Shown here in pieces: positions 22,068 to 23,079 of a DNA stretch of 64,000 nucleotides. The notes below the pieces were generated by a model. It worked only from the letters and a program-made list of their open reading frames with translations. It was not told where the DNA came from and ran no database searches. The first letter of the stretch is position 1. Each line of letters begins with the position of its first letter. The stretch is taken from assembly GCF_054482595.1 (NCBI RefSeq), contig NZ_CM137008.1; one strand, written 5' to 3'. Position numbers and translations under genes: made by a program.

Positions 22068-22084
22068 TTAAGATTATTCTGCTG

Positions 22085-22125
22085 GCGGGTCGATTTATTT
22101 ACGTAAATCGGTCCGCTTTCTTTTT
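22085..22125 (+). terminator. Intrinsic terminator after speA
   Basis: 13-bp stem gcgggtcgattta / taaatcggtccgc (two G-U pairs) followed by TTTCTTTTT. Confidence 0.7.
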
Positions 22126-22212
22126 ATATATTCTTAAAAATAATTTAGCTGCTTTTCTTATTAAATAATCTCCCTACAATCGCTGCATTAATTAAATGCA
22201 GAGGGAACGGTT

Positions 22213-22944
22213 ATGAAAAAATGGAAAGTACGTAGCGCGTTGGTGGCATTAATCGTGCTGCTGGCCGGTTGTTCCAGTAATGCGCAGTATAATAGCAGTG
22301 CATCGGGCAATGTCGGCACCGCCTGGGGTGGGGATGTGCACTCAACGGTTCAGGGCGTATCTGCTGAGCGAGCCTGGCGCGATCCGGCGGAGATGATCGT
22401 TATTAGTTATTCGACTAATGTTCCTTCCGGCTACGACCGCGTTTATAGCATTCGTATTAACGAACTGGAATATGCTATTCGCGATGGTAATTTTAATTCT
22501 CTACCTATTACGCGTGTTTATGATTCATCCAATAATGAACCACGCTATATTGTCCATGCCAGAGTCGGAATGAATTATCAATTATATGTCCGTAATTACA
22601 GTCGTAACACCAACTACGAGATCGTTGCTACGGTTGATGGCCTGGATGTGCTGAACGGCAAGCAAGGTTCGCTGAATAACAACGGCTATATTGTGAATGC
22701 CGGAGATTCGTTAGCGATTAAAGGATTCCGCAAAGATAAACATACCGAAGCGGCTTTTCAGTTCGCCAACGTTGCTGATTCCTACGCAGCCAATTCGGCG
22801 CAAGGCGATGTGCGTAATACCGGTGTAATAGGCTTTGCCGCCTTTGAATTACAAGGCCAGGCGCAAAACGCGCTGCCGCCGTGCTCTGGACAAGCCTTTC
22901 CGGCAGATAACAATGGCTATGCGCCGCCACCGTGTCGGAAATAG
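22213..22944 (+). CDS. Uncharacterized lipoprotein (243 aa) between speA and speB
   Basis: Signal peptide plus lipobox (MKKWKVRSALVALIVLLAG-C-SSN); AT-rich codon usage; own AT-rich upstream region; two Cys near the C-terminus; no family recognised. Confidence 0.8.
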   Translation: MKKWKVRSALVALIVLLAGCSSNAQYNSSASGNVGTAWGGDVHSTVQGVSAERAWRDPAEMIVISYSTNVPSGYDRVYSIRINELEYAIRDGNFNSLPITRVYDSSNNEPRYIVHARVGMNYQLYVRNYSRNTNYEIVATVDGLDVLNGKQGSLNNNGYIVNAGDSLAIKGFRKDKHTEAAFQFANVADSYAANSAQGDVRNTGVIGFAAFELQGQAQNALPPCSGQAFPADNNGYAPPPCRK

Positions 22945-23011
22945 CAACCTCGCTTGATGCCTCGCCCATTTAAGGCGATAATTAGCACAAACTTGTGTTT
23001 CGCAAATCCAA

Positions 23012-23051
23012 CCCTTCCTCGTCGGGCCTAACGACGCGGAAGGGTTTTTTT
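23012..23051 (+). terminator. Strong intrinsic terminator immediately upstream of speB
   Basis: Nested stem cccttcc-tcgtcg...cgacg-ggaagg followed by TTTTTTT, ending about 28 nt before the speB ATG. Confidence 0.7.
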
Positions 23052-23079
23052 ATATCGACTTTGTAATAGGAGTCCATCC

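Follow-up and report, generated by a model that had tools for sequence, protein, structure and literature searches.

The biosynthetic arginine decarboxylase gene speA and the agmatinase gene speB lie close together in K-12-type Escherichia coli, separated by 137 bp in the K-12 derivative J53 (speA end at 2940 and speB start at 3078 of locus L001), and Szumanski and Boyle are said to have reported in 1990 that K-12 speB is either cotranscribed with speA or has a promoter of its own. E. coli commonly carries accessory lipoprotein genes and shows losses confined to particular strains. Here we analyze the speA-speB interval of an E. coli DNA stretch of 64,000 nucleotides (assembly GCF_054482595.1, contig NZ_CM137008.1), referred to as the window, in which the gap is 1012 bp long and contains an additional open reading frame (ORF) encoding a predicted lipoprotein of 243 amino acids. 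A terminator hairpin (T1) separates this ORF from speA and a second hairpin (hairpin 2, or T2) precedes speB. An initial annotation of the window had put the gap at about 1 kb and had given about 140 bp for K-12, both in agreement with the measured lengths. The K-12 region has the same flanking genes, promoter-like hexamers at the same spacing and an identical 77 bp immediately before speB. These 77 bp, comprising hairpin 2, its run of seven uridines (U7) and the ribosome-binding site (RBS), are the only part of the 1012-bp segment shared with K-12 and B derivatives. K-12 differs in lacking T1 and the lipoprotein gene and in a 60-bp stretch, including the promoter-like site, that is diverged by about 35%. 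We consider it likely that the window retains an ancestral lipoprotein unit between speA and speB that was lost in K-12-type E. coli.

Conservation of the speA-speB interval

Orthologs of the lipoprotein gene, 53-96% identical, are located directly downstream of speA in 10 enterobacterial genera. The hosts are two Escherichia cryptic-clade genomes, E. whittamii, three Citrobacter species, Kluyvera, Klebsiella, Intestinirhabdus, Phytobacter, Kosakonia, Entomohabitans, an isolate labelled 'Enterobacter sp.' and Salmonella. With the exception of Salmonella, all of them have speB directly after the lipoprotein gene. The complete order metK-speA-lipoprotein-speB is found in the Escherichia clades, E. 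whittamii, Citrobacter, Kluyvera, Klebsiella, Intestinirhabdus, Phytobacter, Kosakonia and the 'Enterobacter sp.' isolate, while Entomohabitans has speA-lipoprotein-speB with 1.5 kb of extra DNA. The E. albertii locus begins inside the gene and shows the lipoprotein-speB adjacency only. A direct-repeat search found only short, chance-level repeats flanking the segment, and the ORF list contains no insertion sequence (IS) elements, integrase or mobility ORFs near it. All plasmid matches are typed as non-mobilizable, being either megabase replicons or mislabelled chromosomes, and phage matches to the segment are partial and distant. Because the same slot is occupied in about ten genera, no mobile signature is present and a deficit in third-position GC content (GC3) is shared among the orthologs, the K-12 state is best read as derived: by this comparison the lipoprotein gene is ancestral and its absence from K-12-type strains is a derived loss. 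We hold this evolutionary and architectural account to be highly probable. The initial annotation had described a self-contained module absent from K-12 and inserted between speA and speB. The absence from K-12 and the discrete unit behind the speA terminator both stand. The insertion does not, given that the speA-lipoprotein-speB order is conserved across genera, with the same site occupied in about ten of them.

Two further arrangements were observed within the Enterobacteriaceae. In Salmonella enterica (L003/L004, 5733..10732), an island that opens with the gene of a GntR-type regulator and also encodes a mannitol dehydrogenase, a zinc alcohol dehydrogenase and Ldh_2 lies directly after the lipoprotein stop codon and separates the gene from speB. 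Citrobacter sp. 18056 (L022/L023, 4001..4729) carries a 64%-identical copy with neither speA nor speB within 4 kb on either side, representing a second context in this family. The L022 record is labelled Chryseobacterium, but its match statistics equal those of the Citrobacter record and it looks like contamination or mislabelling.

Two alleles of the interval together account for 5417 of 5425 matched E. coli genomes. The whole 1012-bp segment is present at 97.4-100% identity in 3550 of 5426 complete genomes. In the remaining genomes, J53 (K-12) and Nico21(DE3) (B lineage) among them, the match is confined to the final 77 bp of the segment, in line with the absence from K-12 that had been claimed. 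A probe for the K-12-type junction matches at full length in 1867 genomes (about 35%) and is 100% identical in 13 of the 14 full-length matches sampled across the ranking. As an exception, strain 23CRST038 (L093, 2748..3934) shows an IS1-associated rearrangement that truncates the lipoprotein gene (annotated as partial, N-terminus missing), with actS and a tRNA-Gly gene adjoining. Truncated fragments of 174-181 residues are labelled Shigella dysenteriae.

The K-12 haplotype is distinguished by its 60-bp segment (L001 2941..3000, corresponding to 22945..23003 of the window), which shares no more than 55-67% identity with any other version, within E. coli or beyond it in Escherichia and other genera. 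In the window, the segment is 90% identical to that of E. albertii and 73-75% identical to those of Citrobacter. No direct repeats that could explain a deletion in K-12 were found above shuffled controls. Window and K-12 speB differ at 42 of 921 sites. These differences appear to be all synonymous because the window SpeB translation is 100% identical to the K-12 locus, as it is to the O157 locus (tblastn). Within E. coli (window, K-12 and O157), speB differs at 28-42 positions per 921 bp, compared with 26-54 between Escherichia species, and despite this high diversity the SpeB proteins are 99.7-100% identical. speA follows the normal pattern with 22-35 differences within and 89-151 between species. 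Import of a divergent allele without the lipoprotein gene, for which no donor was identified, might explain both the K-12 segment and the speB diversity.

The lipoprotein gene and its protein family

The ORF is intact and has the lipoprotein features initially ascribed to it, namely a length of 243 residues, the lipobox LAGC and serine at position +2. Its N-terminus reads MKKWKVRSALVALIVLLAG followed by CSS, with a signal peptide at residues 1-19 that combines a positively charged n-region (MKKWKVR) with a hydrophobic stretch (SALVALIVLL). The lipobox occupies residues 17-20, placing Cys20 at the predicted lipidation site and Ser21 and Ser22 at positions +2 and +3. Aspartate at +2 is the inner-membrane retention signal of Enterobacteriaceae lipoproteins. 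Among 35 aligned homologs the lipobox cysteine is invariant and aspartate is never found at +2 (0 of 35). Sorting to the outer membrane is thus a reasonable prediction from the serine at +2.

The base composition of the gene departs from that of its neighbors. GC content is 48.9% for the ORF (GC3 47.5%), 51.5% for the window and 54-56% for speA and speB. The 145-bp gap upstream of the ORF has 32% GC, and the central 200 bp (22400-22600) are the only stretch of the ORF falling to 36-42%. The gene had been called AT-rich, which fits this upstream gap and the central stretch but not the ORF as a whole when set against the window. Orthologs in seven other genera have GC3 values of 0.44-0.51 compared with 0.60-0.74 for their speA genes (0.475 and 0.614 in the window). 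As the same offset is seen in all seven genera tested, low GC3 is long-standing and does not point to recent transfer. The proposed comparison of composition with the flanking genes shows no deviation specific to the recipient lineage.

Substitution patterns mark the lipoprotein ORF as a genuine gene that is kept by purifying selection and changes faster than speA and speB. Across the same genome pairs, the ratio of nonsynonymous to synonymous substitution rates (dN/dS) is 0.06-0.12 for the lipoprotein gene, 0.006-0.03 for speA and 0-0.01 for speB. Protein identity in these pairs is 94-100% for SpeA and 87-100% for SpeB and drops to 53-75% for the lipoprotein. The gene is an annotated coding sequence in all 19 full-length matches sampled across the ranking of E. 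coli genomes, and the dominant protein clusters (4753 and 651 member sequences) are intact at 243 residues. Conservation in related genomes, which the initial annotation had named as a test, is therefore found in many genera together with the low dN/dS.

The lipoprotein belongs to a large family that domain databases do not describe. Homologs fall into 2902 representative clusters (50% identity) at E<=1e-3 and 853 at E<=1e-10, with hosts including Providencia, Proteus, Gilliamella, Pseudomonas, Acinetobacter, Moraxella, Neisseria, Kingella, Burkholderia, Ralstonia, Variovorax, Paracoccus and myxobacteria. Their annotations go no further than lipoprotein, outer membrane lipoprotein or uncharacterized. 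Pfam gave no match for the lipoprotein even at E<=10 and PADLOC gave none. NCBIfam and PHROGs returned only weak, far sub-threshold matches centered on the signal-peptide region, and the best match of the family profile to PDB sequences is unrelated (E 0.3). When 16 longer homologs were scanned against Pfam, neither a known domain nor a fusion partner was found. The earlier statement that no family could be recognized accordingly holds for the mature domain in all five resources.

An alignment of 35 members (35-74% identity to the query) contains 26 invariant columns. Conserved motifs are GTxWG, YEIVATVDGLDVLNG, GFRK, NxGVIG and a C-terminal AFPAD...YAPPP, which is flanked in enterics by Cys224 and Cys241. 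An AlphaFold2 (AF2) model has a predicted local distance difference test (pLDDT) score of 79.8, with most of the core above 90, and shows a confident beta-sandwich core at about residues 31-215 followed by a C-terminal tail. Structural neighbors of the model are weak or uncharacterized. Those with MATH/TRAF-like and fungal DUF7918 beta-sandwiches share 2-21% sequence identity, and scores against the PDB are too low for homology. No function can be transferred from these neighbors because none of the better-scoring ones has a known function. Hypothetical proteins 32-37% identical to core residues ~90-220 were also observed in the jumbo rhizobial phages Phosso (Sinorhizobium) and Atu_ph07 (Agrobacterium) and in Rhizobium phage RHph_I1_18 (records PV764938.1, MN988519.1 and MF403008.1).

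Genomic contexts outside the Enterobacteriaceae are diverse. No homolog found there adjoins speA or speB, and clustering of the ORFs flanking 46 non-syntenic loci revealed no recurring partner outside the Comamonadaceae. In the latter, including Variovorax (L007-L009, 6001..7187), the homolog is located in the his operon between hisD and hisC, an arrangement confined to this family. A neighbor in the same operon encodes a secreted protein of 115 residues with two cysteines and no known family. Three candidate roles were considered and rejected. Only one metagenomic context adjoins an Rhs toxin, as would be relevant for an immunity function in a type VI secretion system; no phage context supports a phage-derived exclusion lipoprotein; and membership in a lysozyme-inhibitor family finds no Pfam match.

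Terminators, promoter candidates and the speB leader

In the window the gene order is metK, yqgD/yqgB, speA, the extra ORF, speB, loiP (minus strand) and tktA. The features of the interval are collected in Table 1.

Table 1. Position of the speA-speB interval features and the two bounding genes in the window.
Feature	Position	Strand	Basis
speA, biosynthetic arginine decarboxylase	20091..22067	+	ORF list; RefSeq speA of 1977 nt at matching position in O157 and J53 (start placed from this length)
T1, speA intrinsic terminator	22084..22126	+	Terminator scan, fold, covariation; hairpin with 15-bp stem 22084..22117, U-rich tail to ~22126
Candidate -10 hexamer TACAAT of lipoprotein gene	22175..22180	+	Cross-genus alignment
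Palindrome CTGCATT-AATTA-AATGCAG	22183..22201	+	Sequence inspection
RBS GAGGG of lipoprotein gene	22201..22205	+	Sequence inspection
Lipoprotein gene, 243 aa	22213..22944	+	ORF list; O157 annotation 'lipoprotein' WP_000758914.1
speB-proximal promoter-like site TTGATG-17-GATAAT	22954..22982	+	Promoter scan; putative function
Hairpin 2 (T2) with U7, shared terminator/speB leader hairpin	23010..23051	+	Fold, invariance, K-12 Term-seq; hairpin 23010..23046, U7 23045..23051
speB, agmatinase	23080..24000	+	ORF list; RefSeq annotation of matching region

Both of the proposed hairpins fold strongly, with -17.8 kcal/mol (z -4.7) for T1 and -24.4 kcal/mol (z -5.0) for hairpin 2. T1 was matched by the terminator scan. 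Its consensus hairpin is kept in 13 sequences with compensatory changes in 8 of 14 pairs, and it is absent from the K-12 gap. This pattern identifies T1 as the ancestral speA terminator, evidently an ordinary covarying intrinsic terminator that was lost in K-12. An Rfam scan of the region gave only a sub-threshold minus-strand match at T1, probably due to chance. About 35 nt before the lipoprotein start codon, TACAAT or a near variant is present in most genera aligned, and no good -35 element was found for it. This conserved hexamer suggests a weak promoter of the lipoprotein gene's own. A perfect 7-bp palindrome directly abuts the RBS of the lipoprotein gene. E. whittamii keeps it and the E. 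coli representative almost does, whereas it is not conserved outside Escherichia; it could be an operator or a hairpin of the 5' untranslated region.

Hairpin 2 belongs to the speB leader and not to the lipoprotein unit. It is identical in K-12 despite the missing lipoprotein gene, and it is absent within 5 kb downstream of the Salmonella ortholog, where speB lies elsewhere. The initial description of a module bracketed by two terminators is thus right about the presence of both hairpins but not about the second being part of the unit. The terminator scan missed hairpin 2 because of one internal mismatch. In K-12, Term-seq maps an RNA 3' end 30 nt upstream of speB (PMC7815308, supplementary file 3). 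This end corresponds to about position 23050 of the window, inside the U-tract of hairpin 2, and the hairpin therefore terminates transcripts in vivo. Across 12 sequences hairpin 2 has 37 invariant positions, while the flanking DNA varies on both sides. Ten of its 14 pairs never vary, two show compensatory changes, the bulge is fixed and the loop is nearly fixed (GGGYYUA). No Rfam family matches it.

Following the promoter-like site within about 30 nt, the hairpin ends about 28 nt before the speB start. The hexamers of the site, spaced by 17 nt, are TTGATG/GATAAT in the window, TTGAAT/GATAAT in K-12 and TTGAAG/GATAAT in most other genera. Hexamers and spacing are conserved in most genera compared whereas the spacer diverges, and in Phytobacter and Kosakonia the first hexamer has diverged as well. 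Extra inserts of about 140 bp are seen in the gap before speB in Citrobacter gillenii (L017, ~2720..2850) and Intestinirhabdus alba (L025, ~4790..4930). The C. gillenii insert sits between promoter-like site and hairpin and presumably resembles an enterobacterial repetitive intergenic consensus/intergenic repeat unit (ERIC/IRU) element. To reach speB, transcripts from speA would have to pass T1, the 732-bp lipoprotein gene and hairpin 2 in the window, but hairpin 2 only in K-12.

Alternative explanations and comparison with known systems

Three other histories of the lipoprotein gene were weighed against ancestral presence followed by loss. Recent insertion of a horizontally transferred cassette in this lineage, with K-12 preserving the original empty site, would fit the lack of the gene in K-12 and B strains, the GC content of ORF and upstream region below that of the flanks and the position between two terminators. 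On the alignments it is already contradicted by synteny, as each of the ten or so genera would have had to acquire the gene independently at the same site. Moreover, orthologs diverge in step with their genera, synonymous sites are saturated between genera as in speA and speB, the GC3 deficit is common to all orthologs tested, no repeats, IS elements, integrase, plasmid or phage carriage were found and K-12 also possesses T2 and the promoter-like site upstream of it; we regard such an insertion as exceedingly improbable. A subtler possibility is that the empty site is ancestral within E. coli and that homologous recombination with a sister Escherichia lineage brought the gene back. The closeness of speB differences within the species to those between species does hint at cross-species recombination. 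Yet cassette diversity within E. coli (97.4-100%) is that of ordinary core DNA, it is the K-12-type junction that is near-uniform in the matches sampled, and synonymous divergence (dS) between E. coli and other Escherichia species is ~0.3 for the lipoprotein gene, similar to the 0.2-0.34 of speA. The outlier is the K-12 promoter segment and not the E. albertii-like version of the window, leaving re-import with a small chance at best. That the ORF is a decaying or non-functional remnant on its way to being lost could be argued from its dispensability in about 35% of genomes and from the truncated copies in strain 23CRST038 and in entries labelled S. dysenteriae. Against intact dominant clusters, a dN/dS of 0.06-0.12 and 26 columns invariant across alpha-, beta- and gamma-proteobacterial homologs, we give this next to no credence.

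A separate question is whether the position of the gene reflects a tie to arginine, agmatine and putrescine metabolism, for example in polyamine handling at the envelope, which would account for its retention between speA and speB. The slot has long been conserved across Enterobacteriaceae, and the Comamonadaceae homolog likewise resides inside an amino-acid biosynthesis operon. However, the strong terminator T1 stands between speA and the lipoprotein gene, no homolog adjoins speA or speB beyond the Enterobacteriaceae, no neighbor recurs across families and the Salmonella island parts the gene from speB. K-12 also makes putrescine via SpeA and SpeB without the lipoprotein, as is well established. 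With T1 intervening and the linkage confined to Enterobacteriaceae, the gene does not behave as a member of a speAB operon. We read both the speA-speB and the hisD-hisC placement as positional accidents and not as functional links, and find a metabolic connection very unlikely.

In our preferred account, an ancestral lipoprotein gene forms its own small transcription unit. The layout is speA, T1, the putative weak promoter, the lipoprotein gene, the promoter-like site of speB, T2 and speB. The product would be a lipoprotein of about 24 kDa, exported by Sec, lipidated at Cys20 and sorted to the outer membrane by the lipoprotein localization (Lol) pathway because residue +2 is serine and not aspartate. 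The mature protein is predicted to consist of a short flexible tether, the compact beta-sandwich and a disordered tail presenting AFPAD...YAPPP, which a Cys224-Cys241 disulfide may close in enterics. Such a tethered beta-sandwich might have a non-enzymatic part in the envelope, as a binding or scaffold module whose conserved tail docks a partner, and would be dispensable under many conditions. We put forward this binding or scaffold function only tentatively and with considerable doubt.

Several points weigh against this account. The K-12 haplotype is not a clean deletion, given its diverged 60 bp, and comparison with shuffled controls revealed no other source for this segment within the cassette or elsewhere in the window. 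The genome scan is driven by sequence patterns and keeps 80 loci, from which absence from other genera is not readable. The promoter scan did not call the TACAAT site, so that the proposed promoter consists of a -10-like hexamer only. A binding or scaffold role is the default for a modelled beta-sandwich without a catalytic match, and the invariant polar residues E136, D142, D145, R173, K174, N128 and N202 would also fit an enzyme or metal site. Expression, lipidation and localization of the lipoprotein are predictions from sequence, and literature searches by gene context, protein accession and locus tags that may be wrong returned no paper on it. A paper on polyamines makes no mention of the locus.

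The presence or absence of this gene is an ordinary kind of accessory-gene polymorphism and is not surprising in kind. It does illustrate how the use of K-12 as reference invites an error of polarity, the laboratory strain probably being the deletion mutant at this locus. Transcriptional coupling of speA and speB as seen in K-12 may not hold for strains in which a further terminator and gene intervene, approximately 65% of E. coli, among them O157:H7 and uropathogenic strains. In addition, the lack of the gene in K-12 is a plausible reason why a conserved family of envelope lipoproteins, with about 2900 clusters, has gone unstudied and is missing from domain databases. The function of this family merits testing at the bench, as does the speB leader hairpin, which hardly varies and is a concrete candidate for a regulatory element.

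Compared with known systems, the protein resembles small enterobacterial outer-membrane lipoproteins in its signal peptide, LAGC lipobox, lack of aspartate at +2, short tether and single globular domain. It differs from them in belonging to a family that has no Pfam or NCBIfam model, reaches far beyond enterics and carries the AFPAD...YAPPP tail. The layout of 22954..23079 resembles an attenuator, and the sequence constraint on the hairpin appears to exceed what a terminator needs. Hairpin 2 could be a sequence-specifically recognized attenuator of agmatinase and not a plain terminator. The lipoprotein, for its part, could found an unrecognized envelope family of alpha-, beta- and gamma-proteobacteria, with partial domain homologs in jumbo rhizobial phages, and its invariant polar residues and docking-like tail could stem from a new activity or interaction. 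We judge these two readings rather unlikely. Like the attenuators of biosynthetic genes, the speB leader has a promoter-like site followed by a strong hairpin with U7 and, in K-12, a mapped 3' end. Unlike them, it possesses neither a leader peptide nor an alternative antiterminator pairing nor a conserved leader of aptamer size.

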